Source: Candidatus Omnitrophota bacterium
GTDB lineage: Bacteria > Omnitrophota > Gorgyraeia > Gygaellales > JBFMHM01
Reading direction: 5' to 3'
DNA: 64,000 nucleotides
Assembly (NCBI GenBank): GCA_040753015.1
Contig: JBFMHM010000002.1
Location: 193,126 to 257,125 of the forward strand
Shown: piece by piece, positions 42,982-64,000 of the stretch
Position numbering within the stretch: the stretch's first letter is position 1
How the letters are laid out: each line of letters begins with the position of its first letter
Notes under the pieces: generated by a model
Database searches by the model: none
The model's input: the letters and a program-made list of their open reading frames with translations, nothing else
Told to the model about the DNA's origin: nothing
Position numbers and translations under genes: made by a program

Positions 42982-44421
42982 TTATGCCTCTGGACGCAAA
43001 AGCGGAAACAATATAACCTCTCTTATCGACGGCTGATTAGTCAATATCATAACTAATCTGTCGATTCCAATCCCGAGCCCGCCTGCAGGCGGCATACCAT
43101 ATTCTAACGCCTCAATAAAATCTTCATCAACATTACGATCATTATGTTCGTTATCTTCCTTTAACTCTGCTAAAAATCTTTCTTTTTGTTCAATGGGATT
43201 ATTAAGTTCTGAATAAGCATTAGCAATTTCAATTCCTCCCATAAATAATTCAAAACGTTCGCTTATATTAGGATTATCTTTTTTAGCCATAGCTAGAGGA
43301 CACAAAAAAGTGAAATAATCTGTAAAAAATGTTGGAGAAAAAAAAGACTGGGTTTGCAAATGATCTTCGACAATTTTCATTATCTGTGTCCTCGTTAGGC
43401 CTTTTTCCGCTCTACACTTTCCTTTAGCTCGTAGTTTATCCAACATAACACTTTCGGAATCATTAGCAAAAATTCTAAATTCTTCTTCAACAATCTTAGC
43501 AAAAGAAACCCGCTTCCACGGCCTAGTTAAATCAACCTCATGCCCCTGATATTCAAAAATAAGTTTTCCAAACACTTCATATGCCGCATGAGTTATTAAT
43601 TCTTCACATAACTCCATCATATCATCACAATTGTTATATGCGGCATAAACCTCGAGCATTGTAAATTCTGGGTTATGCCTTGTTGAAACCCCTTCATTTC
43701 TAAAACTTCTGTTTATCTCATAAATTTTTTCAAAACCACCAACCAAAAGTTTTTTAAGATAAAGCTCTGGTGCAATCCTTAAAAATAAATTAATATCGTA
43801 TTCGTTATGGTGTGTCGAAAACGGCCTGCCAGCTGCGCCTCCTGCTATAGGATGAAGCATGGGAGTTTCAACCTCCATAAAATTTTCAGAATCTAAAAAA
43901 GAACGGATCTTAGAAACAATTTTTGTACGCCTTAAAAATACTTCTCTAACTTCGGGGCTTGAAATTAAATCAAGATGGCGCTTTCGAAAACGAGTTTCAA
44001 CATCTTTAAGGCCATGCCATTTCTCGGGAAGCGGTTTTAGTGATTTTGAAAGCAGCTTCAGATCTTCTACTTTTATAGTAATCTCCTGGGTGTGCGTTTT
44101 AAAAAGCTCTCCACTTGCGGTTATAATATCACCAATGTCAAAAAGTGAAAAAATATTAAATTTATCTTCGCCAACAATATCTTTTTTTATATAAAGCTGT
44201 AGCTTTGCGCTAGAATCTCTTAAGTCGGCAAAAAATACTTTTCCATGACCTCTTATACTCATAAGCCTGCCGGCAACGGTTAACTTTTTACCTTCACTAA
44301 AATTATTTATAGCTTCGCCTATGTCTAAGCGCAACAATGGCTTATCACCATAAGCAATTACTCCAAGCGATTCTAATTTTTCTAGCTTTTCCCTGCGTTC
44401 TTTTAATAAATCATTTTCCAT
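42982..44421 (-). CDS. lysS: lysine--tRNA ligase (class II)
   Basis: N-terminal OB fold plus class II core motifs (FRNEG, GGIEIAN...GLGIGIDRL). Confidence 0.9.
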   Translation of the reverse strand: MENDLLKERREKLEKLESLGVIAYGDKPLLRLDIGEAINNFSEGKKLTVAGRLMSIRGHGKVFFADLRDSSAKLQLYIKKDIVGEDKFNIFSLFDIGDIITASGELFKTHTQEITIKVEDLKLLSKSLKPLPEKWHGLKDVETRFRKRHLDLISSPEVREVFLRRTKIVSKIRSFLDSENFMEVETPMLHPIAGGAAGRPFSTHHNEYDINLFLRIAPELYLKKLLVGGFEKIYEINRSFRNEGVSTRHNPEFTMLEVYAAYNNCDDMMELCEELITHAAYEVFGKLIFEYQGHEVDLTRPWKRVSFAKIVEEEFRIFANDSESVMLDKLRAKGKCRAEKGLTRTQIMKIVEDHLQTQSFFSPTFFTDYFTFLCPLAMAKKDNPNISERFELFMGGIEIANAYSELNNPIEQKERFLAELKEDNEHNDRNVDEDFIEALEYGMPPAGGLGIGIDRLVMILTNQPSIREVILFPLLRPEA

Positions 44422-49784: not shown

Positions 49785-50986
49785 TTTTCACTCCTTGCCT
49801 TATTTACTTCTACTAAAAAATTATCAAGCCGCTCTTGAGACACAATGCCTAAATCAACAATCACTTCACCTAAAAGCCTACCGGTTGCCCAATGCTTAAC
49901 CAAAGCCGCATTGAGAGACGTCTCATCAATTAACTTCGCATCCAATAATCTTTGCCCTAATGGCTTAGTTCTTTTTAATAATAAGCCTTTAACAAAATCT
50001 GATTCTGCTTCTACCCGTTTAGCCAATATATCATTATTCTCATTCAAATGCTCTTCATGCCTCCTATTAATAAGCATATTGCTCCCTTTTAATGTTTTTA
50101 GATACTTCTTAATCTCGAAAGCAATCTCTGTAAGTTCTAAAAAATTTGCAATCTGTTTTCTCTTATTATTAACTATCGCAATTGAAATAGACATTAGCGG
50201 TATTTTTTTAACTTCTCCCGACCTATCTTTTACAATGATAAAACCTTCTCTGCGATCTTTTGGCGCATAATGAAAAGGTATCAATCTATCAAATTCTTCT
50301 ATCACATATTTAGCAATCATCTTTTCATTATCCGGGTTAACTATAGCGACAAAATCATCTCCACCGATATGCCCAACAAAATCATTTTTCGACCCGAGTT
50401 TTTTTACAGCCATTGAAATTATGCGCGCTGTCTGCATAATCACGCTATCACCATACACATAGCCATATTTGTCATTAAAAGATTTAAAGTTATCAATATC
50501 TATATAAAAAAATGAGAAGAGCTGATTACTTTGAATTCTAATACTTACATTTTTTTCAACAGCCGGGCTTCCTGGCAACCGAGTTAAAGAATTTGCGAAA
50601 AATTGATAATCACCGCTTCTCTTGGCAAGCTCAATCCTTAATTCAAGATCTATAGGATCTGGCGGCTTGATTAGATAATCATCTACCCCTTGTTCAATCT
50701 CGAGCATTTTTTTTCGAGCCTGCTTCTTATCGATAAGCATAATTATCGGAATATGAGCAGTTAAAAAATCTTCTTTAAGGGTTTTACTTAGATTGAAACC
50801 ATCCATATCTTCTAATGTGTCATCTACGATTATTGCGTAAGGATGGCAAATAGTTAGCTCATTAAACGCCTCTTTGCCATTCTTGACTAACACTATTTCA
50901 TACCCCCAGCTTTTGATAGTTGCCTGGAGCGGCTGGATTAAATCCTTATCATTTAAGGCTAAAAGTATCCTCTTGTTATCTTTCAT
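49781..50986 (-). CDS. response-regulator receiver + degenerate GGDEF (GGDDF) + C-terminal MshEN-like c-di-GMP-binding domain
   Basis: REC (IIVDDTLEDMDGF...YLIKP), then the GGDEF fold (DSLTRLPG...IDIDNFKSFNDKYGYVYGDSV...GHIGGDDFVAIV). The C-terminus has two tandem MshEN-type motifs (LGQRLLDAKLIDETSLNAALVKH and RLLGEVIVDLGIVSQERLDNFLVE). Confidence 0.65.
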   Translation of the reverse strand: MKDNKRILLALNDKDLIQPLQATIKSWGYEIVLVKNGKEAFNELTICHPYAIIVDDTLEDMDGFNLSKTLKEDFLTAHIPIIMLIDKKQARKKMLEIEQGVDDYLIKPPDPIDLELRIELAKRSGDYQFFANSLTRLPGSPAVEKNVSIRIQSNQLFSFFYIDIDNFKSFNDKYGYVYGDSVIMQTARIISMAVKKLGSKNDFVGHIGGDDFVAIVNPDNEKMIAKYVIEEFDRLIPFHYAPKDRREGFIIVKDRSGEVKKIPLMSISIAIVNNKRKQIANFLELTEIAFEIKKYLKTLKGSNMLINRRHEEHLNENNDILAKRVEAESDFVKGLLLKRTKPLGQRLLDAKLIDETSLNAALVKHWATGRLLGEVIVDLGIVSQERLDNFLVEVNKARSEK

Positions 50987-52112
50987 TAAATATTTCCTGC
51001 GTTTGGCTCTTTACAACCCTTGCGATAGCAATACTTGCTGTAAGCCCCGGAGATTCAATGCCTATTAAATTAATAAAACCATCTAACCCTCTATCCTTTT
51101 CATGCTTAATTATAAAATCACGAAAACCGTCATCCGGCCCCTGTAACTTTGGGCGAATACCACTGGTATCCTCTGTCAAATCACTATCTGAAATAAACGG
51201 CAGTAGATCATGGATTGACTCATAAAATAATTTCTTTTTTCTTAAGTTTAAAGAATAATCTAAAATATTCCCAGAAATATATTCTGCGTCCGGGCCAAGG
51301 CGCACTGAACCAGCTAAATCAGGTGTTGCATGTATACCAAGATCTCTTCCTTTTATATCAGGGACAGGATAGATAAGACGGTTAATCATCCTTGATTTTT
51401 GGCTAGATAACCTAAAGTATTGCCCTTTGCAAAACTTTAATTTATATGACTCTTCTCTAATCCCGGCCATCTCAGAAATTTTATCTGAATAAAGGCCGGA
51501 ACTATTAATAACCATTCTTGTTGATATTTTAATTTTTTCTTTATCGCTGTCATTTATCTCTAATACAAAATTATTTTTTTCTCTATTAATAGAGGTTACT
51601 TGTGCATTATAGACAAACTGTACTGAATTATATTTTGCTTTTGTCTCAAGATGCTTCATCAATGAATGCGTATCAACAATTCCCGTTGAACCAGAATATA
51701 TAGCAACATCGGCTTTCAGATTAGGTTCTAATTTAATAATTTCATTTTTATCAATAAGCTTAATATCCTCGACCCCGCAAGATAATGCATGCTTAAATAA
51801 CTTCTCAAGCCTCTCAATTTCGTTGCCATCCTTTGCGGCAATCAACTTTCCAATGCGCTTATGTGCTATCCCTCCTTCCCTACATAATTCATAAATAAGC
51901 TTATTACCCTCTAAACATGTAACAGATTTTAAACTGCCCTTAGGATAGTATATACCTGCATGAATTACTTCGCTATTTCTTGAGCTGGTTTCCTGCCCAA
52001 AAGAATTGTTCTTTTCAACTACATAGATATCTTTATTATGAGAAGAGATTTCATAAGCTATAGCCAAGCCAATAACACCTGCGCCAACAATTACTATATC
52101 TACATTCTCCAT
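50976..52112 (-). CDS. lhgO: FAD-dependent oxidoreductase, L-2-hydroxyglutarate oxidase/dehydrogenase (LhgO) family
   Basis: Dinucleotide fold IVIVGAGVIGLAIA. Throughout, it follows my recollection of E. coli LhgO (SEVIHAGIYYPKGSLK, CKGQYFRL, LIYPVPD, GIHATPDLAGSVRLGPDA). Confidence 0.75.
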   Translation of the reverse strand: MENVDIVIVGAGVIGLAIAYEISSHNKDIYVVEKNNSFGQETSSRNSEVIHAGIYYPKGSLKSVTCLEGNKLIYELCREGGIAHKRIGKLIAAKDGNEIERLEKLFKHALSCGVEDIKLIDKNEIIKLEPNLKADVAIYSGSTGIVDTHSLMKHLETKAKYNSVQFVYNAQVTSINREKNNFVLEINDSDKEKIKISTRMVINSSGLYSDKISEMAGIREESYKLKFCKGQYFRLSSQKSRMINRLIYPVPDIKGRDLGIHATPDLAGSVRLGPDAEYISGNILDYSLNLRKKKLFYESIHDLLPFISDSDLTEDTSGIRPKLQGPDDGFRDFIIKHEKDRGLDGFINLIGIESPGLTASIAIARVVKSQTQEIFNER

Positions 52113-52120
52113 TATAAAAA

Positions 52121-52438
52121 TTATCTAATCCGGCTGCTTATTTCAAGTAAAGTTTTAACAAGAAAAGTTTTTATAAATATTATTAAAAGAAAAGCGATTA
52201 TCGGTGAAATATCTATACCTATCCTAAAATTAAATGGAATCATTCTTCTGATAGGAGAAAGAATCGGCTCTGTGACTGCATTTAAAAACTGAACAATTGG
52301 GTTATAAGGATCAGGGCTGACCCAGCTAATTATAGCTCGTATTAAGATAAGCCAGTAGAGGATAGTCAAAACAATATCTAGAACATTGGCAAGAGCAATT
52401 AATAAATTAGATATTATAAACATATTTATATTATACAA
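52121..52438 (-). CDS. YggT family membrane protein
   Basis: 105 aa, 2 TM, YGGT repeat (LIRAIISWVSPDPYNPIVQFL). Confidence 0.7.
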   Translation of the reverse strand: MYNINMFIISNLLIALANVLDIVLTILYWLILIRAIISWVSPDPYNPIVQFLNAVTEPILSPIRRMIPFNFRIGIDISPIIAFLLIIFIKTFLVKTLLEISSRIR

Positions 52439-52465
52439 TTATTTTAAAACAGGTCAAAATATAAA

Positions 52466-53614
52466 TCAATTTAACTGCTGAAACTTATATTTAGGAATTA
52501 ATTTAAAAATTGGGTCGAAATTTTTAGGCTGCACAATAAAAAAAATTGGCTTCAGCAATAGATTAATAAAACTATTTAAGTGCCTGCCATAAATATACAA
52601 CGGTTTTAACCTGCCGGCAAGTTGTATTTTACCGTCATAACCAGTCTGCCCTGACTGATAGATACTCAAAGAATTTTTATAGCACCATTCAATATTTAAA
52701 AAGAAGCGGTTAAAAAACAAATGGTATTTATACAGATATTCATAATCAAGGCCTAAGAATTTATCAAGGAATACTCCATATTTAACAAAACAAAGGTTAA
52801 ATCCTACAATCTTACCGCCTATCTTGTAGATAAAGAATTTTACATCATCCTTCATATTTTCTTGTATTTTAATAAAAAAATCTTTGCTTAATTTTTCAAA
52901 ATGGATAGATGAGCGTTTAAATGTCTCTAGATACAATTCATAAATTCTTTCTAATTCATTATTATCAAGTGAATTCTTTACTTCAAGCTTTAATTCTGGC
53001 AAGTCCTTGAGTTTTTTAATCTTTCTTTTTAGATCATGGCGCTTACTAGAATTTAAGCTCTTAAAGAAATCATCTATAGACGCGCCGGCAAGCCTTTGAA
53101 TCACGCAAGGGTATGCGGCAACTCTGATAGCCCCATAATCCTTTAATATATCTAAATCTTTAAATTCTTCACCAAAATCTTTAAAACCAATTGATGAAGC
53201 ATTTATCTTTCTGGTAAAATTAACCATTTCTTTATAAATTAATTCTATAAGTTCCTGTTTTCTATGCAAAAAATTTTTATCAAAACCAATATAAGCATAA
53301 TCCAAAGCGGGCGAACCGCAAATCAAGGTCCTAAAACAAAAAAAATTATTAAAAACTAATCTTATTTTATTGATATAATTTTGGACATTTTCCGGAGCGA
53401 ACAAATCAAGTTTAAAATTGAGTAAAAACAAAGGCGCGATAGATATGATTTTTTGATTTTGTATAATAAGTAAGTAATAATATTTAAACGGCCCAATATC
53501 TGACTCTTCTAATGTCTTATAAAAACCTCTTGCCTCAACTTGACTCTCAAAAAGTTTGTCAAAAATATCAGAAGGAATTTCAGAAACTGAATTCACTATT
53601 TTTGCTATACACAT
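52466..53614 (-). CDS. FemAB-like / BioF2-like tandem-GNAT acyl(aminoacyl)transferase, paralog A (tentative)
   Basis: 382 aa soluble protein, paralogous to the divergent neighbour (about 30-35% identity by eye). The segment SLNSSKRHDLKRKIKKL...IYKIGGKIVGFNLCF resembles the Acetyltransf_6/FemAB-like domain start. Confidence 0.45.
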   Translation of the reverse strand: MCIAKIVNSVSEIPSDIFDKLFESQVEARGFYKTLEESDIGPFKYYYLLIIQNQKIISIAPLFLLNFKLDLFAPENVQNYINKIRLVFNNFFCFRTLICGSPALDYAYIGFDKNFLHRKQELIELIYKEMVNFTRKINASSIGFKDFGEEFKDLDILKDYGAIRVAAYPCVIQRLAGASIDDFFKSLNSSKRHDLKRKIKKLKDLPELKLEVKNSLDNNELERIYELYLETFKRSSIHFEKLSKDFFIKIQENMKDDVKFFIYKIGGKIVGFNLCFVKYGVFLDKFLGLDYEYLYKYHLFFNRFFLNIEWCYKNSLSIYQSGQTGYDGKIQLAGRLKPLYIYGRHLNSFINLLLKPIFFIVQPKNFDPIFKLIPKYKFQQLN

Positions 53615-53677
53615 AATAAAATGTATTTTAGCATAAAAAGCTATTAAATTAATTTATATTTGTTATAATACCAAGTT

Positions 53678-54814
53678 ATGCCGAATTTAAATATAAACAT
53701 AACAGAAAATATTAATGATATCAACCCCCATATTTGGCAGAAATTGTTTGGATCTCACCCATTAAGGCAATATGGATACTACAAAAGCATTGAACAAACC
53801 CAATCTAAAAAATTTAAATTTTATTATATAAATTTTTTAAAAAATAATGAGCTTATTGCCATCGCTCCTTGTTTTATAATGAATTTTCCCATAGATTTCT
53901 CTTTAGATAAAAAATATAAAAGGATTACTAATTTTATTTCAAAAATATTCTATTATTTAATAAATATCCGCACGGTTTTTATCGGTATGCCAATGTCTTG
54001 CCAATGCGATATAGCATTTAACCCAGAATTTCAAGACAAAAATATAGTCCTTCAAGAAATTATCCCGGCTATGAAGGCTATTGCCAAAAAAGAAAATGCC
54101 TGGATGATCGCATTTAAAGATTTTCCTCGCCAATATCAATCATTTTTAAAAAACCAAAATTTTATGGAAATTGAAACTTATCCAAATGCACGGCTGGATA
54201 TAAATTTTGATTCTTTTGAAGATTACCTAAAGACATTATCTTACGCAACAAGGTATGACTTGCGCAGAAAAATGAAAACCTATGCAGGCCTTAAACCATT
54301 AACCCTAGAGATAAAAAAAGACTGCTCTGAATGCATAGATAGAATTTACCAATTATATATAAATACGGTAAATAAAAATGAGCTACACTTTGATGTAGCT
54401 AAGAAAGATTATTTTTTAAATATTGCAAAGAATATGCCTGAAGAAATCATGTATTTTATCTGGAAGCTGGATGATAAAATTGTTGCTTTCAACCAGTGTT
54501 TCTATAAAAACGATATAATGGTTGGCGATTTTATTGGTTTTGATTATAATATAGTTTATAAGTATAATCTTTACTTTGTAATATTCAGAGATAAAATAGA
54601 ATGGTGCATTAAAAATAAAATTAAAGTCCTCGATGAAGGCACATTTACGCTAGAACTAAAAAAGCGGCTAAAATTTAAATTTTATAATAATTATTTTTAT
54701 ATGAAACCTAACTTTAAATTATTTGAACCGATAGCAAGAATAATTACGCCATTTTTCGCACCATCTGATCAGGATAAACAATTAAAAATATTAAAAAGAT
54801 TTAAAAAAATATGA
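53678..54814 (+). CDS. FemAB-like / BioF2-like tandem-GNAT acyl(aminoacyl)transferase, paralog B (tentative)
   Basis: 378 aa. Aligned blocks with paralog A: KFYYI..L.IAPCF.MNF, YDLRRKMK, IYQLYINT...HFD..KK.YF, KIVAFNQCF, IEWCIKN. Confidence 0.45.
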   Translation: MPNLNINITENINDINPHIWQKLFGSHPLRQYGYYKSIEQTQSKKFKFYYINFLKNNELIAIAPCFIMNFPIDFSLDKKYKRITNFISKIFYYLINIRTVFIGMPMSCQCDIAFNPEFQDKNIVLQEIIPAMKAIAKKENAWMIAFKDFPRQYQSFLKNQNFMEIETYPNARLDINFDSFEDYLKTLSYATRYDLRRKMKTYAGLKPLTLEIKKDCSECIDRIYQLYINTVNKNELHFDVAKKDYFLNIAKNMPEEIMYFIWKLDDKIVAFNQCFYKNDIMVGDFIGFDYNIVYKYNLYFVIFRDKIEWCIKNKIKVLDEGTFTLELKKRLKFKFYNNYFYMKPNFKLFEPIARIITPFFAPSDQDKQLKILKRFKKI

Positions 54815-55215
54815 ATCGTGCTAAACATCTAACGCTAAAAATATTTTCTTTAATCGTATTGACTGATTTAATAGAAAGCTCGTCACAGTTTTTCCTAAAA
54901 AAGGGTACAATTAATTTTCCGAGTATGAGCCTAAGCAATCTATCTGAATATATACTTTTTATAAAATCGATGATCAATTCCCATTTTATTTGGCTAGGAT
55001 TTTTAATGATAACTATAAACTTCTTTTTATGGATGGTAGTATTAAATAAGGTTGATTTAAGTGTGGCATTTCCTGCTGGAAGCGCATCATTTTTATTCGT
55101 GCCTATAGCTGCTATATTTTTCTTAGGAGAACATATTGGAATCCTACGTTGGCTGGGAATGATTTTAATTATTGGCGGTGTTATATTAATTTCAAAAAGC
55201 AGTTATGATAGTTAA
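54811..55215 (+). CDS. small 4-TM DMT/EamA-like membrane protein (ArnE-like flippase subunit candidate)
   Basis: 134 aa, four hydrophobic helices, LGE motif (FFLGEHIGILRWLG); overlaps the preceding gene by 4 nt (operon). Confidence 0.5.
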   Translation: MNRAKHLTLKIFSLIVLTDLIESSSQFFLKKGTINFPSMSLSNLSEYILFIKSMINSHFIWLGFLMITINFFLWMVVLNKVDLSVAFPAGSASFLFVPIAAIFFLGEHIGILRWLGMILIIGGVILISKSSYDS

Positions 55216-55582
55216 AATTTATATATTCATATTCTTATCTGCAATTGTCAGTGCATTCGCACAAGTATGTTTCAAAAATGTGGCTGATAGATTTGAGAAT
55301 GTCGGCATACATAATCAATTCCAATTCTATAAGCAGATATTGTTAAGAAAAACTACCTGGCTTGGATTTTTATTTGTATTTTTGGATATTTTTACCTGGA
55401 CAGTAGTATTAAATTTTACCGAGCTTAGTTTCGCCTTCCCTTTCTGCAGTTTGAATTATATAATCGTTTTAGGGACATCCAAATTTGTCCTAAAAGAAAA
55501 AGTTTCCTTAAAAAGGTTATTAGGCACGCTTCTAATTATGGCGGGAATTATCCTCGTCGGCCTAACCCACAACAGCCACTAA
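55205..55582 (+). CDS. small 4-TM DMT/EamA-like membrane protein (ArnF-like flippase subunit candidate)
   Basis: 125 aa, four helices; paired with the preceding ORF as in the ArnE/ArnF heterodimeric small-transporter arrangement. Confidence 0.5.
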   Translation: MIVKIYIFIFLSAIVSAFAQVCFKNVADRFENVGIHNQFQFYKQILLRKTTWLGFLFVFLDIFTWTVVLNFTELSFAFPFCSLNYIIVLGTSKFVLKEKVSLKRLLGTLLIMAGIILVGLTHNSH

Positions 55583-55631
55583 TTTTTTCGTTAGGCTAAA
55601 CTCATATTTCAACTATATGAAATTGTATACC

Positions 55632-56486
55632 TTATATCTTCTCTAAAATCACATTAAATCGTTCAAAGACTTTATCCAAGTTGAAACTCTCACCTATCCT
55701 AATAACTGGTATCAATTCTGTTTCCGTCTGTTTGCGAAGTAAATATAAAGTTTCTTGATCTAAGCCAAAGTTTTTGTTGTAATTACCATTATAATTCTCA
55801 TCTTCGAGTTTCTTCTTAAAAATACCAAGAAAATGCTTATCATTAAAATCAAACTTAGCCTCCGATATAAACCACAAATCATAGTAATCACGGATTGCCA
55901 CATCTCTTCTTGTAATTGCAGCTTTAAGCTTCTCTGCAACAGCCTCATTCAACGAAAGCGACAATATCTTATTTTGGGGTATCAAATTCTCGCCTGTAAA
56001 AGGATCTTTGTAAAAATGCGTAACTATATTATGCACGGGCTTATCAATAGGGGTTTGCCTAAGCGATATCTCTAATTTAATATTTTCGTCCTTGCCGGTA
56101 ATAAATGACGGATATGATATATAAAACACATATTGCGTAGAATTATTAAATCCCTTTCCCTGCGGTATTTCGCTTTTTAAATCTAATAGCTTCAACAATC
56201 CTGGCATCTTTTTCCTTATAGGCGTAATCGCACGGGACCGCTTAGAACGAATTTCAAGGCTATCTGGACTGTAGTATGTAAAATCGATATCCTCGCTTAA
56301 CCTATGATAGTTAAGATGGATCTTATTTAAAAGCGTACCGCCTTTAAAAACTATTTTTTCGCTCAGATGAGATTCAATAGAATTCAAAATAAGCGTCAAA
56401 TAATAATCCTTTTCAACCATCTCAAGCCGAAATTTATGTTTCTGCGCGATGACAGGAATTATTTGTTCTAGTCTTACTTTATCCAT
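55632..56486 (-). CDS. nucleotidyltransferase AbiEii/AbiGii toxin family protein (type IV TA toxin, DUF1814)
   Basis: N-terminal KDYYLTLIL...IVFKGGTLLNKIHLNYHRLSEDIDFTY, characteristic of AbiEii; 284 aa. Confidence 0.7.
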   Translation of the reverse strand: MDKVRLEQIIPVIAQKHKFRLEMVEKDYYLTLILNSIESHLSEKIVFKGGTLLNKIHLNYHRLSEDIDFTYYSPDSLEIRSKRSRAITPIRKKMPGLLKLLDLKSEIPQGKGFNNSTQYVFYISYPSFITGKDENIKLEISLRQTPIDKPVHNIVTHFYKDPFTGENLIPQNKILSLSLNEAVAEKLKAAITRRDVAIRDYYDLWFISEAKFDFNDKHFLGIFKKKLEDENYNGNYNKNFGLDQETLYLLRKQTETELIPVIRIGESFNLDKVFERFNVILEKI

Positions 56487-57252
56487 TAATAATTATTCTC
56501 CAGGTATTATTAATCTCGCCTTTATTTGACACACTATTATACAAAGGAGTATATCCTTTTTCTCCTACGTCAATCTTGCTCAATAACTTTTTATCAGCTC
56601 CTAGTTTTTCCAAGAAAAAACCCGCGCGCCTGCGAACCCTTAAGACGGGGTATTTAGTTAGATATTCAACGAATAACGATATATTAAGTTTAGTGAGCTG
56701 ATCTTTCAAAATGATAAAAGCTTTTCTTATATCATAAAATTCAAAAACATCTATCATCGCGCGTTCTTTTGTCGGAAAAACAACCTCCTCACTCTTTATT
56801 TTGCGTGTTTCCAAGCCAAAAAACCGGTTGGGCAATACCTTAATCAATTTATATCTAACGCCCAGAAATGTCTTACGTATTGAATACCTGTCATTAACTA
56901 CTTGAATCATCTGGGCAATTTGATCAGTAAAACCGTAGGAATTAAAAACAGTGGCGTAACCGATATAATAATTGGCTTTTCTTGCTAAAGCCTTCGCGAT
57001 TAAATATTCATTCCCTGCCCAAAGGCCACTAGGAGCCTTCATTGGAATAAAAAGATAGATGTTCTTAATAATTTTCTTTAATCTGCCTTTTTCTAACAGC
57101 TTCTTTATTAAGTATGCCGCCAGCTTTTTATTCTTACAAAAAAAGATAATTTCCTGCTTGGTATAAATCTCTTTTCCATAGAACTCTAACCGCGTTATTA
57201 GTTCCACTTCCTTGGTAGAAAGTGTCTTTTGTATCGTTATTTTTCTTTTCAC
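56479..57252 (-). CDS. AbiEi-like antitoxin / transcriptional regulator (type IV TA antitoxin)
   Basis: 257 aa immediately upstream of AbiEii and overlapping it by 8 nt. N-terminal winged-HTH-like segment (LSTKEVELITRLEFYGKEIYTKQEIIFFC). Confidence 0.55.
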   Translation of the reverse strand: MKRKITIQKTLSTKEVELITRLEFYGKEIYTKQEIIFFCKNKKLAAYLIKKLLEKGRLKKIIKNIYLFIPMKAPSGLWAGNEYLIAKALARKANYYIGYATVFNSYGFTDQIAQMIQVVNDRYSIRKTFLGVRYKLIKVLPNRFFGLETRKIKSEEVVFPTKERAMIDVFEFYDIRKAFIILKDQLTKLNISLFVEYLTKYPVLRVRRRAGFFLEKLGADKKLLSKIDVGEKGYTPLYNSVSNKGEINNTWRIIING

Positions 57253-57361: not shown

Positions 57362-60300
57362 CTATGAAACGAGGGTAATTTGAATTAGTGATAAATCAAT
57401 GCCGCCGTGAGCGGCTTCTGTAGGGGCAGGCTCCTGTGTCCGCCCAGAAGGCCTAGGATATTGCATAGCTAATTCTCCTATATCTTCTATGGTTATATTT
57501 GGCGAAAGATTTGCGCTTTGGGTCAATGCCAAAGCCCGGTTAGCCAGCCAATGAAAACCTCTTACTCTATGATTAGGCAATAGTTGCGCAAGGCCTAAGC
57601 GCAAATCATCATCTAGCCCAATGCAATATAAGTCTTGCCCGCGTATTTGCGCAAATTCATGCCCAAACTCTGTTAATCTTTCGGAATCAATAATATTCGA
57701 TGAACCAGTAATACTTTTAGTTCTTTGGCTGTATCTTTGGTTTTCCGCATCATCATAAAATTCAAGATTTATTTGAGTTGTGTCTTGGCCTGCAAAACTA
57801 GCCCGCGCCTTATTCCATCGAGCCAAAACCCGAGGTATAATTACTTTGGCTAAACCCATTAAATTTAAACTAGTCTTATGCGGCAAAGTTACCTTTTCTG
57901 AAACAATACTGCCGTCAGGCAGGACAAATATTAATCTATTTAAACAGTAATGATAATTACTTCTACCAACACATCTATTTTTAAATTGCACTAATATTGA
58001 GTTTATAAAAGAGTGTATCCAAGGCTCAAAATTATCTTGGCTGCCTAAAGAACGAAAATCTAAAAGTAAGCTTATACCGTCTTCGTATTCTTCTTGATAC
58101 TCTTTGACGGCTGGTGGTTTATCCGGGCTTTGCCTGGCTGTTTTTTTCCAGTCAATGTCTCTTGGTGAATCGCCGTATTGATAGTGTCTTGACTGATGAT
58201 ATTCGCTGCCTCGGCCAGATCTTCTGCCGCTTTTGCCGCTGAGCCGTAAATGTCCATTTGTCACCGGAGGAATAACCTTTGTTCCTCTCGATAAACCTTG
58301 TTCTATTTTTTGCGCAAGGCTTAAGCTATCACCTACGCTTACCAAAGAACCAGATTGAGCGCGTTGTTGACTTTGGCTGTCAAAACTTTTAATTATCGCT
58401 TCAAGCCGGCTATAAGCTTGTTTTGGTGCAGTAATATCTCCACTGCTAATTTCTTCAACAAGGCTGCGAATTTGTTTATTCATTTTTTGCCTTTGACGAT
58501 GTTCTAACTTACTGCGCACAAGTAAAAGGCTAACTGCAGGAATTAAACTTAAAAGCCGTCTTGCTAATTTTGGGTTTGCTTCTTTGGGAGACTCTAAAGC
58601 AATTGCTCGTACGCAATCAAATATTACTCTTTCTCTGCCTTGTAACCGTTTACGCAAATTTTCAATACGGCCTTGCTCCTCGTTACTTAATTCTTTATTA
58701 GCCAACATTAATTCTGCAAGCAGCTTTCTTGCATTACCTAACTCACCGCCAAACCAAGGGTTATCCTGCCAAATTTTATTAATTACATCATTTGCGCTAG
58801 CACCCAAAATTAAATCTTTACGCCTTAGATAATCTGACATAAAACTTAAGGCAAAATGCAGCAAGCCAATAAGAAATAGTAAAAATAGGCCGTCTTGGTT
58901 TGCCTCTTTCCAAAATTCAACCCATAAAGAATCAATAGTTTTTTGGCCAGAAAATTCTGGCCCTAAAATTTCGTTTAGTTTATCATTAATTGCTTGCCAT
59001 TCTCTTAGGCTAGCCTCTTTATTTGCCGCTTCTACTGGACTAAGCGAACGAATTTTGCAAGCCTCTGCGTTTGCTTGTAAAAGCTTTATTGCTTTAAATA
59101 ATGTATCGGAGCGCGTATCAGCGCTTAACTCAACATCAAACGCAAAGCCGCTAGAACCCGTCCTTGTTTCTAAATATCTATGCAAACCCTGGAATATTCT
59201 CTCCAAATCACCTTGGCTTAAATTTGCATCAGGGCTGTCTAGGCCAACGACAAAAAGTTTTCTCTCTGCTTCTTTAAGCGCGTCTTCATATGGCCCAACA
59301 TTCCCAGTTTGAGGAACAAGTGAATTTAATTGCTCAATTGCTTTTCTTGCCTCTTGGTTATAATAATAGGCAGGATAAACACTTGTGGTTATACCAAACT
59401 TTTCTCTTTGGCTTGCCTCATAAACATCAAACATCTCTCGAATTTTTTCCTGGCCTAAACGATGTAAAATTGTTTTTGATCTTTCGCTATTTATAGTAAC
59501 TAGTTGAATTAAAATTTCAAGGCCTATCCTATGCTTACTAAAAAAATGTATCAAGTTTACTATTTCGTCATTTGTTAAAGCACCATTTACAGCATCTACA
59601 AAAAACTCAAGATTTCTATCAATTATCTCCACTGTGCGGTCAAAATCAAAATATTTTAAATTATCACTTTTAAGCATATCTTTTAAAATAAAAACGATAT
59701 AAGCGCTGCTTGCCTCGTCTTCTCCTAATTTCTCTTTTAAAATTTTATCAAGATTTTCCCATCTTAAATCAAAACGATCTTTCCTAATATCAGTTTCAAA
59801 GTTATCCACAACGCCATACCTACCTGCAACTGCCTGGCGAAAATTATGCCAGTGGCCCTCTCCTGCTACCATGCTCGTAGATTCGCCATTACTATGATAG
59901 CTAATACGTTCAATCCATTCCCTCTTTGCCTGATAGCTTTTTGCATCCATGTTCCCATTAAAACTATTATCGGCCAAAGGCCCAAAAAATCGATAACTTT
60001 GATTTGCTTGGCCTTCATTTTCAACAGTAGCCGCAATCCATTTATCTTTATTGAAAAATTTAAAAAATACTAATTTATTGCTCGCAAAAATAACAGCAAG
60101 ATTAGATACGCCTTCAAAAATAGATATGCCTAAATCATTAATACCGTTTTTATCAATTTTTAGAATTCTCATACTAGTATATGGTATTTGGACAACTTTA
60201 TTAGAAATACGTATTTCTTCTCCAACTATAGCAACTAACTTGCCTTGTTCAGTAGAAATTTGCACACTTTTATAACTATCGGTTGGCTCTTTAACAGATG

Positions 60301-63300
60301 GCCCAAACAATTGATAGCCGCCACCAAGAATTGGCGATAAAACAGCAAGCCAAGTGCCGTCAGCGACAGCATATACCTCTAAGTACTCACTATATTCTGC
60401 ATTAATGTATGAACCGGCAGCAGGGCCGATTAATTTATATTTACCATTACCAAGTTCAATAGCAGCAACCCATGTTTCATCAGGAAAAACAAATAATGAG
60501 GTGATCTCTTTATATCTTGCTTCTGTTAATTTAACTTTTTCTGCAATTAAGCCAACAAAGCTATATTCAGGATTAGGATCATTATCGCTTATTCGATGTT
60601 CAACTACAGCCAACCATCCACCGCTAGGTGTAATTCTAATATCTTTAATTCCGCTAAATCTCTGATCACTAAGTCCTGCTTTTTCTGCCAAAGGCCCGAT
60701 AAAGCCCAGCCTATTGAATTGATATTCTTTGCCCTCATTATATCTAACTACAGCCAGCCAATTATCCGGCATTGCACTAGAATATAATGCTATATTTAAA
60801 AACCCTTGTCCGCGGTATTGCTCGGTACCTTCGCCAAATAAATAAACTTTATTATCGCTTTTTACGGCAACTCTACCTTGATTATAGGTATGTATCTTTG
60901 TTTGTTCTCCAATTTTAATCTTTCTTCCTGTAATCAAGTCAACCACATAACCATCTTCTATAACTAAATCATTTAATACAGCATTCCTTCCGGAATGAGG
61001 AATATCATAGGGCTCAAACAATTCCCAACATTCTTCTCCCGAATCATCTCCGGACAATAATTTCTCAGATGATGGAACAAAACTAGATGGGACAAAATCA
61101 TCGGATAAAAATAATGTTTGCGTTGGTTTTTTTTCGTTTTTAAAATTATTAATAAATTTCATCACAACTTGTTTTGCTTCAGTTGTATCAATATCGGGAA
61201 ATTGCCTTTCTACCTCAGCAATAACTCCAAACAAATAATTGCCAAATGCCATAAGCTGGTATTTATCTTTAATATTGGTTAGCGCTAAAGGAATGTTTGT
61301 TTCAATTAGGCGCAATGCCTGCTCTCTGGTCAATTTAGTAGTATGTAAAATTCTAAGCCTCTTTGAATAAAAAGCATTCAGCAGCTTATAATATTTTTCT
61401 TTTGGCATATTAACCCCATTAGCCCGATCTTTTTCAATTTCAAACTCAAGCTCAAGGCCTTCTAAGATAGCAGCTAAATTTATTTTAATTTGTTCAGCGC
61501 GTGCCTTGATAAAATCAAATTCCTTTTGCCAATCCTCATCAGTTACACCTTGCTTTCCGTATAGAGGCGATGCATTCTCGCTAAAGGCTACTGACTCACC
61601 AACTCCTTCTTCTGTCCAAATCCAAGAATGCCTTATACCATTCACATTACCAGATGGTTCTGATCTATAGCCTGAATGTACCTCAGCCTTAATATCCAAC
61701 TCGCTTAATAAAATCGCATCGACAACTGCGAAACCATCGCATTGCATAGCATAATTTTCAAACATACTTTTTAATGCATTACCAGCTGGTTTTAGATTTG
61801 GGTTAGTCGAATAATAAAACAATTTCAATATTTTTTCTTTGACCTTTTTTCTTTGCTCAAGCGGTAATGATTTTGCTTTTTCTAAAATTCTCTTAATTTC
61901 CGGCGGTAAGCTATCACCAACATTATTTCCGACGATCTCAAAAGGTTTTATCTCTGGTAATTCGCCTGTTTGAGCCTTACGCACGCCAATTCTTACTGCG
62001 CCGGTATCAGCACTTGTATGTAAGTGCCATATTTTATTTGCGCGGTCAAAATAAACTCTTACATCATCAACTTTATTCTCGGTTTGTATATCAGCAATAA
62101 CATAACCTGAAGGAACCAATAACCTATTTGGTTGAGGAGACATAACAACCCATTTTTCCGCTTTACCGCTCAATCGCCAGTGAATTACATCTGGGGAACT
62201 GGGAATTTTTACTCCTAAAATAGGGTCTATTTTAGAAAAACTTACCTGTAAAAGATATTCCATACCTCCGCCTTCAACTTGAGCAAAAACATCCCCTGAG
62301 ATATCTTGATTAGCTGATCCCATGCCAATATTTTCTGGTGATAAATTCTTAGTTAATTCTTGAGGAACAACTTTTTTATCTTTTAGTTCTAGCTGAGTAA
62401 CATCTGTTGTTTTTGAATCTAAAGGCTCAACTTTATGCCAGGTTTTTGGTTTAGGTACTTCTTGGGTTTGTGGAACTATTAGCTCATAAGGCTTTACTTG
62501 TGCCTGCAATTCTTGAAAACCCTTATCACGCTCTTGCCTTAATTGTTCTTCTTCTACGCGTAATTGCTTAAGCTTCTCCCTCTTTTCTTTAAGCTCTCTT
62601 TGTTTTTCTTCCTCTTCGACTTTGTCTAAATCTTTTGCTTGTGCCAAAATAAAATTAAAATTTGTTAATTCAGCGATTAATTTATCGCTATCTTGTTTAG
62701 AATCATCTTCTTCTTGGCTTATGGTGGTTTGTTGTAGAGACGCATTGCTATGCGTCTCTACTTGAGTAATTATATTTTTTTGCACATCATTAGAATCAGA
62801 AATTGCATTTACCACTCCAAACAAAGAGCCTGCACCTAAAAATGCGGCTAAGGTAAAAACCAACCCTCGACGAACAGAATACCGCCTTTGTATACGCCGA
62901 AAGTCTCTACCTACATTATGCTCTATTGCACCTTGAGCGCGGGGAGTTTGCCTTATTACACTGGTTACAGGTACGCCATATTGGCCTGGCTTAAGCATAG
63001 CACCTTCAGCTAATATATCAGCCTGTTGCCTGACTGCGGCATTTCTTAAGCTTTTGTCGCCGGTTGAACTTTCAAATCCAAACGCTATAGCTTGTTCCAA
63101 TGCAGCTCGTTCTTCTGAATTTGGTTCTGCGCCGGTAAAAACTTCTGAATGCGTAACCCGCTCAAACAAATCTTTAAGATGCCATAAACTTTGCGTTCGG
63201 TTAACATTTAAACGTTCTTTAACAAACTTATTTAGCGCTTCTTTTTTACGCGCTTGACTAATTTCATCACTTGATAATTTAGCTATTTCTCCTTGGCGCT

Positions 63301-64000
63301 TTATAATTTCTTTCACATCATCACTTGCAGCTTGCTTCTGCGCTTGCCATTTTTGCATAACAGCCGCTGCTTGTAAATGCAAGACTTCGTATTCTTTTTT
63401 ATTTTTTGGCTCAAAAATACCTTTAGCTTTGATATATACTCGTGGCCAAATTAAGTAAGCATAAACAATTAACCAGTCTGATATGCTTTGATGAACCTTT
63501 TCTAATTCTTCCAAATATTTTTCTAAAACACTATATGCCTTTGAGTTTGCTTCAACATGTTTCATTGCAGCCTTAACTTGACTTACAATTTCCTGGTATT
63601 GTTTCGTAGCTTTATCTAGGGCTAACCAAGGGTCCTCTTGACTACAAGCTGTTTTATACGCCTCTTCCATCTTGCTCATACGCCTAATTAATGCGCGAAA
63701 TCGCCATCTTTCTATCGCCCTCTTTACCCTTAAATAAAGTTCTCTTGTATCCTGCCACATTAATTGTAAATTTGTGCTTCCGTCTGGTCTTAAGTAGGTT
63801 TTATAGTCTCGCTTACACAGATAAGCTAATAACAAAATCACCGGATTCACCCCTGAGCCAACAAAAGTAACCCCCTCATCCCCTACGCCTTGGTCGGCAA
63901 TGGTGGGGGCAGGAGTATTGTCTTCATCGCTAACCTCCATTCCTGTTGCCATTAAAGCTGTAAAAACGTACAACGCCTTTACTATCTCGGTTAAAGGAAG
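57362..64000 (-). CDS. giant multidomain membrane protein (more than 2212 aa, 5' end beyond window): TM - coiled coil - transglutaminase-like core - tandem WG-like repeats - TM - DUF58 (vWA-like, MoxR-associated) domain
   Basis: The frame stays open to nt 64000; the ORF-track M at 63973 is a TTG inside the frame. TGase-like Cys/His core YAMQCDGFAVVDAILL...GIRHSWIWTEEG (about 61574-62263). Six to seven degenerate ~45-aa repeats, Y-x-F-x-GP...W-L/V-A-A/V-V (59879-60856). TM helices at about 62801-62869 and 58838-58894. DUF58 signature RGSEYHQSRHYQYGDSPRDIDWKKTARQS...VKEYQEEYEDGISLLLDF (58145-58183 within 57524-58276). Confidence 0.7.
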   Translation of the reverse strand, partial: LPLTEIVKALYVFTALMATGMEVSDEDNTPAPTIADQGVGDEGVTFVGSGVNPVILLLAYLCKRDYKTYLRPDGSTNLQLMWQDTRELYLRVKRAIERWRFRALIRRMSKMEEAYKTACSQEDPWLALDKATKQYQEIVSQVKAAMKHVEANSKAYSVLEKYLEELEKVHQSISDWLIVYAYLIWPRVYIKAKGIFEPKNKKEYEVLHLQAAAVMQKWQAQKQAASDDVKEIIKRQGEIAKLSSDEISQARKKEALNKFVKERLNVNRTQSLWHLKDLFERVTHSEVFTGAEPNSEERAALEQAIAFGFESSTGDKSLRNAAVRQQADILAEGAMLKPGQYGVPVTSVIRQTPRAQGAIEHNVGRDFRRIQRRYSVRRGLVFTLAAFLGAGSLFGVVNAISDSNDVQKNIITQVETHSNASLQQTTISQEEDDSKQDSDKLIAELTNFNFILAQAKDLDKVEEEEKQRELKEKREKLKQLRVEEEQLRQERDKGFQELQAQVKPYELIVPQTQEVPKPKTWHKVEPLDSKTTDVTQLELKDKKVVPQELTKNLSPENIGMGSANQDISGDVFAQVEGGGMEYLLQVSFSKIDPILGVKIPSSPDVIHWRLSGKAEKWVVMSPQPNRLLVPSGYVIADIQTENKVDDVRVYFDRANKIWHLHTSADTGAVRIGVRKAQTGELPEIKPFEIVGNNVGDSLPPEIKRILEKAKSLPLEQRKKVKEKILKLFYYSTNPNLKPAGNALKSMFENYAMQCDGFAVVDAILLSELDIKAEVHSGYRSEPSGNVNGIRHSWIWTEEGVGESVAFSENASPLYGKQGVTDEDWQKEFDFIKARAEQIKINLAAILEGLELEFEIEKDRANGVNMPKEKYYKLLNAFYSKRLRILHTTKLTREQALRLIETNIPLALTNIKDKYQLMAFGNYLFGVIAEVERQFPDIDTTEAKQVVMKFINNFKNEKKPTQTLFLSDDFVPSSFVPSSEKLLSGDDSGEECWELFEPYDIPHSGRNAVLNDLVIEDGYVVDLITGRKIKIGEQTKIHTYNQGRVAVKSDNKVYLFGEGTEQYRGQGFLNIALYSSAMPDNWLAVVRYNEGKEYQFNRLGFIGPLAEKAGLSDQRFSGIKDIRITPSGGWLAVVEHRISDNDPNPEYSFVGLIAEKVKLTEARYKEITSLFVFPDETWVAAIELGNGKYKLIGPAAGSYINAEYSEYLEVYAVADGTWLAVLSPILGGGYQLFGPSVKEPTDSYKSVQISTEQGKLVAIVGEEIRISNKVVQIPYTSMRILKIDKNGINDLGISIFEGVSNLAVIFASNKLVFFKFFNKDKWIAATVENEGQANQSYRFFGPLADNSFNGNMDAKSYQAKREWIERISYHSNGESTSMVAGEGHWHNFRQAVAGRYGVVDNFETDIRKDRFDLRWENLDKILKEKLGEDEASSAYIVFILKDMLKSDNLKYFDFDRTVEIIDRNLEFFVDAVNGALTNDEIVNLIHFFSKHRIGLEILIQLVTINSERSKTILHRLGQEKIREMFDVYEASQREKFGITTSVYPAYYYNQEARKAIEQLNSLVPQTGNVGPYEDALKEAERKLFVVGLDSPDANLSQGDLERIFQGLHRYLETRTGSSGFAFDVELSADTRSDTLFKAIKLLQANAEACKIRSLSPVEAANKEASLREWQAINDKLNEILGPEFSGQKTIDSLWVEFWKEANQDGLFLLFLIGLLHFALSFMSDYLRRKDLILGASANDVINKIWQDNPWFGGELGNARKLLAELMLANKELSNEEQGRIENLRKRLQGRERVIFDCVRAIALESPKEANPKLARRLLSLIPAVSLLLVRSKLEHRQRQKMNKQIRSLVEEISSGDITAPKQAYSRLEAIIKSFDSQSQQRAQSGSLVSVGDSLSLAQKIEQGLSRGTKVIPPVTNGHLRLSGKSGRRSGRGSEYHQSRHYQYGDSPRDIDWKKTARQSPDKPPAVKEYQEEYEDGISLLLDFRSLGSQDNFEPWIHSFINSILVQFKNRCVGRSNYHYCLNRLIFVLPDGSIVSEKVTLPHKTSLNLMGLAKVIIPRVLARWNKARASFAGQDTTQINLEFYDDAENQRYSQRTKSITGSSNIIDSERLTEFGHEFAQIRGQDLYCIGLDDDLRLGLAQLLPNHRVRGFHWLANRALALTQSANLSPNITIEDIGELAMQYPRPSGRTQEPAPTEAAHGGIDLSLIQITLVS

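Follow-up and report, generated by a model that had tools for sequence, protein, structure and literature searches.

The question raised by this locus is why two soluble transferase genes and two very small transporter genes lie packed together at positions 52,466 to 55,582 of a 64-kb stretch of an Omnitrophota contig (the whole stretch is hereafter the window). The genes are called Fem(-) and Fem(+), for the minus- and plus-strand transferase copies, and Eam1 and Eam2, for the two small EamA half-transporters. An initial annotation had read them as divergent FemAB-like paralogs, one in an operon with two ArnE/ArnF-like mini-transporters, and had proposed that a lipid-linked molecule is modified and then flipped across the membrane. 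Based upon protein families and folds, gene order, natural fusions, topology signals and co-located lipid genes, the core of the locus is probably a lipid head-group transferase with a dedicated flippase, whichever group is transferred. The fuller statement, a split MprF-like lipid-modification and flipping system with an aminoacyl-tRNA donor, is offered tentatively, its likelihood being somewhat short of even.

In order to determine how widely the arrangement is conserved, species-representative genomes were scanned, which gave 80 loci (labels of the form L0xx), mostly from Omnitrophota with a few labelled Thermodesulfobacteriota, Deltaproteobacteria or Planctomycetales. Gene order was mapped using hidden Markov models (HMMs) built from the first neighbourhoods, and Fem genes at contig edges were left out. 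For 53 of the 72 Fem genes away from contig edges, Eam1 and Eam2 were directly adjacent on the same strand, in the order Fem-Eam1-Eam2 in 36 units and Eam1-Eam2-Fem in 17, with Eam1 always before Eam2. In the closest relative (L001), the same four genes are syntenic together with the neighbouring YggT and DAO genes, at 53-58% identity for the Fem and 72-73% for the Eam proteins, and a further locus (L019) is arranged similarly to both. The view that the genes form an accessory island was rejected given the synteny in L001 and the phylum-wide occurrence of the unit. The profile, transmembrane/EamA and synteny checks named beforehand as possible refutations of the proposal left it standing.

Enzyme and transporter are also joined in single polypeptides. 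A profile search of 1.84 billion representatives returned 926 clusters of the PF04339/COG3146 family at E ≤ 1e-30, and fusions were counted in the best 150 (family proteins carry labels of the form P0xxx). Eleven of these 150 representatives are Fem-EamA fusions, ten with a C-terminal EamA domain and one in the reverse order, and in 9/11 the EamA part is of the Eam1 type by score. One Fem-Eam1 fusion, present on six contigs, precedes a separate Eam2-type gene that overlaps it by 4 nt, and behind this come genes for an arginase-fold protein, a class-III aminotransferase (AT3), a HAD protein and an α/β-hydrolase (ABH); Eam2 thus remains a separate gene after the Fem-Eam1 fusion genes. Together with the lipid genes found around relatives, the fusions give strong new support to the earlier idea of modification at the cytoplasmic face followed by flipping.

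Fem is fused to other partners as well, once to an ABH (P0177) and once to an arginase-fold protein (P0227), and a separate homology search gave a MipA-Fem fusion (P0277). One 933-aa protein (P0157) combines PilZ, an α-oxoamine-synthase-like Aminotran_1_2 domain and FemAB_like. In L090 (3887-11307), the genes flanking this fusion encode a FadL/Toluene_X outer-membrane channel and an amine-oxidase-like FAD enzyme; the PilZ domain of the fusion hints at c-di-GMP control. Two further variants are a Fem with a C-terminal DUF4118 membrane domain (P0105) and a Fem with a type IV pilin-like N_methyl tail (P0222), the latter of which may be a gene-calling artefact.

Eam1 and Eam2 are paralogs (33% identity, E 1e-18) with multi-transmembrane (TM) sequences. 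Both match the C-terminal half of the PF00892 EamA model, at 37.4 bits for Eam1 and 29.6 bits for Eam2 (cutoff 28.2). An AlphaFold2 (AF2) model of Eam1, built from a 16-sequence alignment, has a pLDDT (predicted local distance difference test) of 78.8 and contains four long helices and one short one (residues 7-33, 44-56 [short], 58-80, 83-105 and 111-133), which agrees with the four-helix DMT/EamA-like proteins originally described. The sole sensible matches of this model in a fold search were Gdx/EmrE and then SLC35 transporters, with weak E-values. Among curated NCBIfam families, Eam1 scores 43.7 bits to ArnF and 39.4 to ArnE, and Eam2 scores 42.0 to ArnE and 36.2 to ArnF, against equivalog cutoffs of 99 (ArnF) and 92 (ArnE). 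ArnF and ArnE are likewise the best curated families for 61/61 Eam1-type and 47/47 Eam2-type relatives, with a best E-value of 2e-13 among these 108 members and none near the equivalog cutoffs. The suggested resemblance to ArnE/ArnF therefore stands as a closest known kind, although the cutoffs are missed by so wide a margin that these are not the family to which the Eam proteins belong.

Opposite Lys/Arg bias is a criterion for antiparallel paired small multidrug resistance (SMR) proteins (PMC9574504). The bias was calculated as Lys plus Arg on the termini side minus those in loops 1 and 3, using explicit TM boundaries. Eam1-type proteins have a mean bias of +2.1, directed toward the termini in 54/61, and Eam2-type proteins a mean of -6.9, directed toward loops 1 and 3 in 47/47; Eam2 of the window carries nine such residues on the loop side and none on the termini side. 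These opposite biases correspond to opposite orientations and hence indicate that Eam1 and Eam2 would assemble as an antiparallel heterodimer, with the termini of Eam1 predicted at the family level to be cytoplasmic. A cytoplasmic enzyme can be fused only to a 4-TM subunit whose termini are cytoplasmic, so the fusions to Eam1 agree with its charge bias.

Since paired SMRs of opposite topology include the spermidine exporter MdtIJ (PMC9574504), the locus could instead serve a small-molecule pathway, in which Fem would attach an acyl group or an amino acid to a cationic, soluble metabolite (such as a polyamine or a derivative of arginine or ornithine) and the Eam pair would export it in the manner of MdtJI. 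The Gdx/EmrE-like fold of Eam1 fits such a role, as does the near-invariant acidic D19 in its TM1 (which also carries E22; TM1 of the window Eam2 is without an acidic residue), and relatives have as partners an arginase-fold protein and an AT3 whose best match is the acetylornithine/ornithine aminotransferase family. However, the MdtI/J and EbrA/B (SMR polyamine/drug) models match at most 6/61 Eam1-type and 2/47 Eam2-type members, compared with all of them for ArnE/F. Neither window protein matches Pfam PF00893 (Multi_Drug_Res) at E ≤ 1, and their NCBIfam SMR matches were weak. An enzyme fused to its transporter is also hard to square with a soluble product, and the acyl carrier protein (ACP), ketosynthase (KS), desaturase and cyclopropane fatty acid (CFA) synthase-family genes, outer-membrane barrels and MacB/DevC-type exporters that recur around relatives would be hard to explain. 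This alternative is considered improbable.

The two transferases are themselves paralogs (33% identity over 359 aa, E 3e-60), and no hydrophobic or TM segment was found in either. PF04339 FemAB_like (COG3146, formerly DUF482) matches Fem(-) at 55.5 bits over residues 118-325 only and Fem(+) at 66.6 bits over residues 12-322 (cutoff 27), and it matches 42/42 aligned relatives. PF13480 Acetyltransf_6, a BioF2-like GNAT family, matches at 43.4 bits in Fem(-) and 41.9 bits in Fem(+) (cutoff 22) over residues ~190-322, the C-terminal GNAT lobe. The modest PF04339 scores and the partial alignment of Fem(-) indicate a divergent branch of the family. Two GNAT lobes are present in the AF2 model of Fem(+) (pLDDT 90.9), and the FemAB-like tandem-GNAT assignment was correct.

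The best PDB fold match of this model was W. viridescens FemX (Foldseek, E 1e-11), with TM-scores of 0.55-0.63 to the FemX structures 1xf8, 1ne9 and 7z6a at ~10% sequence identity, and further top matches were the peptide synthases Sbb17/Sba18, which depend on aminoacyl-tRNA, and the synthase domains of MprF. A sequence search of the PDB with Fem(+) (phmmer) gave no match, and profile matches to Nop56 and aIF2α (E 0.004 or worse) were dismissed as chance noise. Recurrent remote profile matches were limited to ATE_C (10/42 members), FemX (5/42) and PEP-CTERM FemAB (5/42). No conserved [QR]xxGx[GA] CoA P-loop was found across the Fem family, and its members are all basic (isoelectric point 8.1-9.7). 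Kinship among the aminoacyl-tRNA-using GNAT ligases Fem, MprF, ATE and L/F-transferase has been summarised previously (PMC2922099). An aminoacyl-tRNA donor is favoured here because of the best fold matches, the recurrent ATE_C and FemX matches, the missing CoA P-loop and the basic isoelectric points.

The FemX match, together with weak FemX profile matches, raises the alternative of peptidoglycan branching. On this reading, UDP-MurNAc-pentapeptide or lipid II would receive amino acids on its stem peptide from the two paralogs, and paralogs of the FemX/A/B kind do as a rule act one after another. However, against the FemX NCBIfam equivalog cutoff of 500 bits Fem(-) scores 14.5 and Fem(+) gives no match. 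Pfam FemAB (PF02388) was not among the matches of Fem(-), Fem(+) or the 42 relatives. No peptidoglycan genes occur in the neighbourhoods examined, where the contexts are lipid or amine metabolism, and since lipid II has its own flippase, there would be no explanation for an ArnE/F-like transporter that is dedicated to the enzyme and even fused with it. Of the readings weighed here, peptidoglycan branching is the least probable.

A tree and a comparison of bit scores divided the Fem proteins into two deep subfamilies, and the window copies fall one in each. Fem(-) is nearer to the Eam-operonic homologs that are linked to the DegT/AT3 module (238-251 bits, vs 192-226 for Fem(+)); in its subfamily, Fem is operonic with an Eam pair and flanked by genes for a DegT-like pyridoxal phosphate enzyme, ABH, arginase-fold protein, AT3 and HAD-IB phosphatase. 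The Fem(+) subfamily is of the Eam1-Eam2-Fem type and is without this module. Elsewhere each subfamily is normally operonic with its own Eam pair, and several metagenome-assembled genomes carry two Fem copies at separate loci. The divergent pair is therefore an old duplication, and a recent tandem duplication was rejected given that the copies lie nearest to different deep subfamilies. In the window, a single Eam pair is thus accompanied by a representative of each subfamily.

Conserved residues separate the copies further. The polar residues E27, D284, Y319, Y326 and K329 are kept in Fem(-), whereas Fem(+) is changed at positions 99-100% conserved elsewhere (E30R, D283G, Y318L and Y325L). The substitutions of the Fem(+) lineage are E30R, D283G/A, Y318L/F and Y325L/F. 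Fem(+) thus appears to be the derived copy and Fem(-) the canonical enzyme of the module-type subfamily.

The genes around relatives bear on what is being modified. ABH is the most frequent Fem partner after Eam (32 loci), and a DegT-family aminotransferase is divergent from Fem in about 26 loci. In L001, genes for a short-chain dehydrogenase/reductase (SDR), FAD-oxidase, KS, KS, dehydratase (DH), ACP and GDSL lipase come right after Eam2, and L088 has polysaccharide deacetylase, AT3, HAD, ABH, ACP and KS genes beside Fem. ABH, a Fem-Eam fusion, MipA, ACP, KS and a fatty-acid desaturase form one overlapping gene string in L094 (67% GC). In several Omnitrophota metagenome-assembled genomes (the L077 clade; L077, L049, L056, L074 and L072), a solo Fem with ABH lies inside a plsX-fabH-fabD-fabG locus, adjoining an amine-oxidase/phytoene-desaturase-like FAD enzyme and a second KS, FabA-like DH, ACP, ketoreductase and KS set. 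This fatty-acid-synthesis-like region with Fem and ABH in its middle, at 5557-12846 in L077, looks like an uncharacterised lipid pathway. PagL-like barrels occur in several loci. In L012, L017 and L021, a PhoU/DUF47-like gene and a PiT-type phosphate transporter gene lie upstream of the cassette (judged by eye from N-termini), directly upstream of Eam1 in L012 and L021, and a link to phosphate status is possible.

Close relatives of the fused forms come from Alphaproteobacteria (Caulobacter, Phenylobacterium, Agrobacterium, Rhizobium and Pararhizobium), and a tblastn search of plasmids returned 48 records. On pAt of Agrobacterium fabrum 1D132 the order is HAD-IB, AT3, arginase-family, EamA, ABH, GNAT, EamA, TolC, ABC permease, ABC ATPase and adaptor, the last four making up an exporter of the TolC-MacB type. 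Its module components match the Omnitrophota-derived HMMs at 268 bits (Fem), 665 (AT3), 190 (arginase-fold), 133 (ABH), 131 (HAD) and 48-65 (EamA). The Rhizobium acidisoli FH23 operon adds, inside, a fatty-acid desaturase and a cyclopropane-fatty-acyl-phospholipid-synthase-family gene, with MipA/OmpV beside it, and a Nostoc locus carries desaturase, AT3, GNAT, acyl-ACP dehydrogenase, glycosyltransferase and DevB/DevC genes. This last locus (L097, 1-11074, of Nostoc sp. C052 plasmid pC052_E) also encodes a nitric-oxide-synthase oxygenase, an SDR, an SRPBCC protein and a formyltransferase, and has the look of a cluster for a glycolipid or a natural product.

Desaturases and CFA-synthase-family enzymes modify membrane-lipid acyl chains, and MacB/DevC-type pumps handle lipidic substrates. 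With such genes present, a soluble product is much less likely than a lipid. Literature searches found no functional study of the Agrobacterium locus or operon, of ArnE/ArnF paired with a GNAT or of Omnitrophota lipids; the GNAT and arginase genes of a Rhizobium transcriptome paper proved unrelated. The window arrangement is best described as a reduced, compact form of an uncharacterised module that spans phyla, from Omnitrophota to Agrobacterium and Rhizobium.

These contexts also bear on the earlier picture of an aminosugar linked to undecaprenyl phosphate. In that Arn-like route, the sugar would be N-modified by Fem, flipped by an ArnE/ArnF-type heterodimer and used to decorate lipid A or an envelope glycan. 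Every Eam member having ArnE or ArnF as its best curated match is in its favour, together with the divergent DegT-family gene (the family of ArnB), the Polysacc_deac_1 gene of L088 (the family of ArnD) and the PagL-like barrels. However, the window Eam proteins score 36-44 bits against cutoffs of 92-99, and the DegT-like protein matches sugar aminotransferase models over its N-terminal half only, at no more than 97 bits against cutoffs of 375-650. Among the annotated clusters of recurrent neighbours (~85 loci, some clusters judged by eye) there was neither an ArnC-type GT2 nor an ArnT-type GT-C, which argues against an undecaprenyl-phosphate-sugar route. The alphaproteobacterial versions are without DegT and have lipid acyl-chain enzymes instead. 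This part of the proposal is accordingly not supported and is considered very improbable, the contexts pointing to acyl-chain lipid chemistry.

The same contexts also fit a rival for the donor. Fem could be an acyl-ACP or acyl-CoA N-acyltransferase that builds an amino-lipid, comparable to OlsB/OlsA or the bacterial ceramide synthase bCerS, with Eam1/Eam2 flipping the finished lipid; the head-group amine would come from the HAD phosphatase, aminotransferase and arginase-fold enzymes, and ABH or the second Fem would add or trim a second chain. L001, L088, L094 and the L077 clade have dedicated ACP and KS genes next to Fem, the PilZ-Aminotran_1_2-Fem fusion suggests an amine that is made and then N-acylated, and ABH, the commonest partner after Eam, is even fused to Fem. 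bCerS has been described as a peripheral N-acyltransferase of the cytoplasmic face without TM segments, and no flippase has been identified for it (PMC11087976). JGI and COG label the PF04339 family as 'predicted N-acyltransferase', but this label is an automated prediction only. No recurrent sequence similarity to acyl-CoA or acyl-ACP GNAT families was seen, the recurrent remote matches all being to aminoacyl-tRNA transferases, and the top fold matches are aminoacyl-tRNA enzymes. An acyl donor is thus a serious alternative, unlikely on balance, with the aminoacyl-tRNA donor slightly ahead.

For the preferred reading, of an enzyme that modifies lipid head groups and a flippase that moves the product, the following mechanism is proposed. 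The cytoplasmic and basic Fem(-) and Fem(+) would dock on Eam1 at the inner face of the membrane and transfer a group onto the polar head (an amine or hydroxyl) of a membrane-embedded lipid. This group would be an aminoacyl residue from aminoacyl-tRNA, slightly favoured over an acyl residue from acyl-ACP. The antiparallel Eam1/Eam2 heterodimer would then flip the modified lipid to the periplasmic leaflet, toward the outer membrane or cell surface. The paralogs may perform two different or successive transfers, Fem(-) the canonical one and Fem(+) one of altered specificity. Adjacency, enzyme-transporter fusion, opposite topology signals, the fold and family of the four proteins and co-location with lipid-acyl-chain genes are all observed directly; we infer that the acceptor is a lipid, which donor is used, which way transport runs and how the paralogs share the work.

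Several observations weigh against this mechanism. In the window itself, Eam1 is neutral in charge bias, so the opposite-topology inference rests on the family. The near-invariant D19 of Eam1 would suit a small cationic substrate, as would the arginase-fold and AT3 partners, which are classic polyamine/arginine enzymes. With respect to the donor, CoA-dependent tandem GNATs (VipF, 2wpw and N-myristoyltransferase) score only slightly lower than the top matches in the fold search, the remote matches to aminoacyl-tRNA transferases are weak (E 1e-4 at best), and an acyl donor would account at least as well for the ACP/KS genes next to Fem and for the α-oxoamine-synthase fusion. Fem(+), with several near-invariant residues lost, might be non-catalytic. 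No head-group, lipid or extra-module genes were found in the 64-kb window. Finally, PF04339/COG3146 is an uncharacterised family whose one tested prediction, that of a pterin-dependent enzyme in 2011, was invalidated (PMC3223725), and a literature search found no functional study of DUF482, PF04339 or COG3146.

The positions of the genes are listed in Table 1. Direct reading of the sequence confirmed the originally reported layout, including the divergent ~380-aa paralogs and the consecutive overlaps of the plus-strand genes. Fem(+) overlaps Eam1 in the tetranucleotide ATGA (54811-54814) and is translationally coupled to it, and Eam1 overlaps Eam2 by 11 nt (55205-55215).

Table 1. Window positions of the four genes, their divergent spacer and the two genes downstream of Fem(-)
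Feature	Position	Strand	Basis
Fem(-), soluble tandem-GNAT transferase, 382 aa	52466..53614	-	Pfam PF04339 + PF13480
Divergent spacer, 63 bp, AT-rich	53615..53677		direct sequence reading
Fem(+), soluble tandem-GNAT transferase, 378 aa	53678..54814	+	Pfam PF04339, AF2 fold
Eam1, 4-TM EamA/SMR-like half-transporter, 134 aa	54811..55215	+	PF00892
Eam2, paralogous 4-TM half-transporter, 125 aa	55205..55582	+	PF00892
YggT	52121..52438	-	Pfam YGGT 82.5 bits
DAO-family FAD oxidoreductase	50976..52112	-	Pfam DAO 200.8 bits

Within the spacer, an extended -10-like element is present on each strand, TGTTATAAT at 53661-53669 before the Fem(+) ATG at 53678 and TGCTAAAAT on the minus strand ~10 nt before the Fem(-) ATG at 53614, so that both elements sit about 8-10 nt from a start codon. 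No Shine-Dalgarno sequence is visible in the spacer before either ATG. Together, the motifs near the start codons and the lack of a visible Shine-Dalgarno sequence suggest that the Fem(-) and Fem(+) transcripts may be nearly leaderless. A consensus promoter scan that needs both hexamers found nothing within the 63-bp spacer itself, and a terminator scan found none after Eam2, both scans being uninformative in this AT-rich DNA (32 promoter-like sites vs 23 expected).

YggT and then the DAO gene lie directly downstream of Fem(-), an order found elsewhere only in L001; they are possibly co-transcribed with Fem(-) and stand outside the widely conserved unit. The strongest promoter-like site of the region (TTGACC-16-TATAAT, 11/12, minus strand, 52457-52430) falls between Fem(-) and YggT and overlaps the TTG listed as the YggT start; YggT may therefore begin at a downstream ATG with its own promoter. 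GC content is 0.28-0.31 over 52001-56000, which holds the four-gene unit, vs 0.33-0.39 in the flanks (2-kb windows); a Lys-rich, membrane-protein composition could account for the low value, as could a different history. Nearly all genes of the window run on the minus strand, with a GC skew that stays negative over 1-64000. The only sizeable plus-strand genes free of a longer minus-strand open reading frame (ORF) are those of the Fem(+)-Eam1-Eam2 operon and ORF 329-901.

The surroundings had been called accessory-looking, which fits the downstream side only; the upstream side consists of ordinary housekeeping genes (ClpB-like, class II aminoacyl-tRNA synthetase, MacB/FtsX permease, MFS, GH130, ROK, REC-GGDEF, DAO and YggT). 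Both downstream neighbours named at the outset, a toxin-antitoxin system and a giant gene, are real. A type IV toxin-antitoxin pair at 55632-57252 (minus strand) is convergent with Eam2 and comprises a 284-aa AbiEii nucleotidyltransferase toxin (Pfam, 104.7 bits) that overlaps an upstream 257-aa AbiEi-like antitoxin, the latter called from a weak NCBIfam match of 22.9 bits. This pair stands where L001 has its SDR/FAD-oxidase/KS/KS/DH/ACP lipid genes. The giant 2203-aa ORF (57362-63973, minus strand) has as its sole Pfam match a short DUF58 segment at residues 1927-1973, and its true start is uncertain given that it begins no more than 30 nt from the window end. The class II aminoacyl-tRNA synthetase, a 479-aa protein of Lys/Asn/Asp type with tRNA-synt_2 and OB anticodon domains, is encoded ~8 kb away at 42982-44421 on the minus strand and is probably a housekeeping enzyme; some MprF-type systems use dedicated lysyl-tRNA synthetase paralogs (PMC2922099).

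How new non-phospholipid or modified lipids cross the inner membrane is known for few cases (such as MprF, ArnE/F and MsbA), and for bacterial sphingolipids a recent paper reports that the flippase has yet to be identified (PMC11087976). At this locus, three lines of evidence (conserved adjacency, natural fusions and topology) connect an orphan enzyme family with a mini-flippase of its own. More tentatively again than the aminoacyl-tRNA reading, PF04339/COG3146 tandem GNATs and ArnE/F-like antiparallel half-EamA heterodimers may constitute an unrecognised cross-phylum class of lipid head-group synthase-flippases, a second independent solution to the problem solved by MprF. The product of such a class would be an undescribed amine- or amino-acid-bearing lipid of the membrane or outer membrane, with a head group tailored by the arginase-fold, AT3 and HAD enzymes, possibly from arginine. 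If so, it would provide a first function for the orphan family, which also has a plant member (At2g23390), and a new substrate class for lipid flippases of the SMR/DMT type. Were the product a cationic or zwitterionic envelope lipid, it could be relevant to the charge of the outer membrane, to resistance against antimicrobial peptides and to plant-microbe interaction. Function is testable in Agrobacterium and Rhizobium, which are cultured, genetically tractable and carry the module on plasmids.

The initial annotation had not recognised the arrangement as a described system, and a literature search found no paper on the Fem-Eam pairing or on PF04339/COG3146 function; partial likenesses to known systems exist nonetheless. 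FemX/FemABX, ATE1 and L/F-transferases share with Fem the tandem-GNAT fold, the lack of a CoA P-loop and weak recurrent profile similarity, and in this group paralogs are known to act in succession. They differ at ~10% identity and TM-scores of 0.55-0.63, and Fem has no peptidoglycan or protein-substrate context. bCerS, which works with Spt and a dedicated ACP, is alike by description as a TM-less peripheral transferase acting on a lipid amine at the cytoplasmic face (PMC11087976). Dedicated ACP genes near Fem and the α-oxoamine-synthase fusion of one relative recall bCerS and OlsB, and an acyl donor would resemble the two-step acylation logic of OlsB/OlsA (PMC12971839). In contrast, the Fem family has no OlsB-like or ceramide-synthase match in NCBIfam or Pfam (bCerS being compared by description only), and because no flippase is identified in the bCerS pathway (PMC11087976), the Eam pairing is without a described counterpart there.

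The paired SMRs EbrAB and MdtIJ resemble Eam1/Eam2 in their adjacent genes, opposite Lys/Arg bias and antiparallel 4-TM heterodimer, and the Eam1 model matches Gdx and EmrE in fold. The Eam pair is unlike them in that Pfam gives EamA rather than Multi_Drug_Res, that SMR models match few members, and that it is operonic with or fused to an enzyme. ArnE/ArnF, the flippase for undecaprenyl-phosphate-linked 4-amino-4-deoxy-L-arabinose, also consists of two adjacent paralogous EamA/SMR-like subunits of ~110-135 aa with 4 TM helices, encoded in a biosynthetic operon for envelope lipid modification. Differences are that the window Eam scores are less than half of the equivalog cutoffs, that in Eam1 an additional short helix separates TM1 from TM2, and that no ArnA/C/D/T partners are seen (no arnBCADT-type operon with ArnC GT2 and ArnT GT-C is in the window), the context of relatives being acyl-lipid rather than polyprenyl-sugar.

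MprF, the aminoacyl-phosphatidylglycerol synthase/flippase, likewise couples a tandem GNAT of the cytoplasmic face to a translocator of its lipid product, as a single polypeptide, which is also the state of several Fem-EamA lineages, and its synthase domains are among the best fold matches of Fem(+). Unlike MprF, Fem belongs to PF04339/PF13480, with no LPG_synthase_C/DUF2156 match in Fem(-), Fem(+) or the 42 relatives; the translocator is a 4-TM SMR/EamA-type heterodimer rather than a multi-TM N-terminal domain; and in the window, enzyme and transporter are separate genes, with two enzyme paralogs. The logic of a transferase with a dedicated flippase is therefore known from MprF and Arn, whereas the parts used here and their combination differ.

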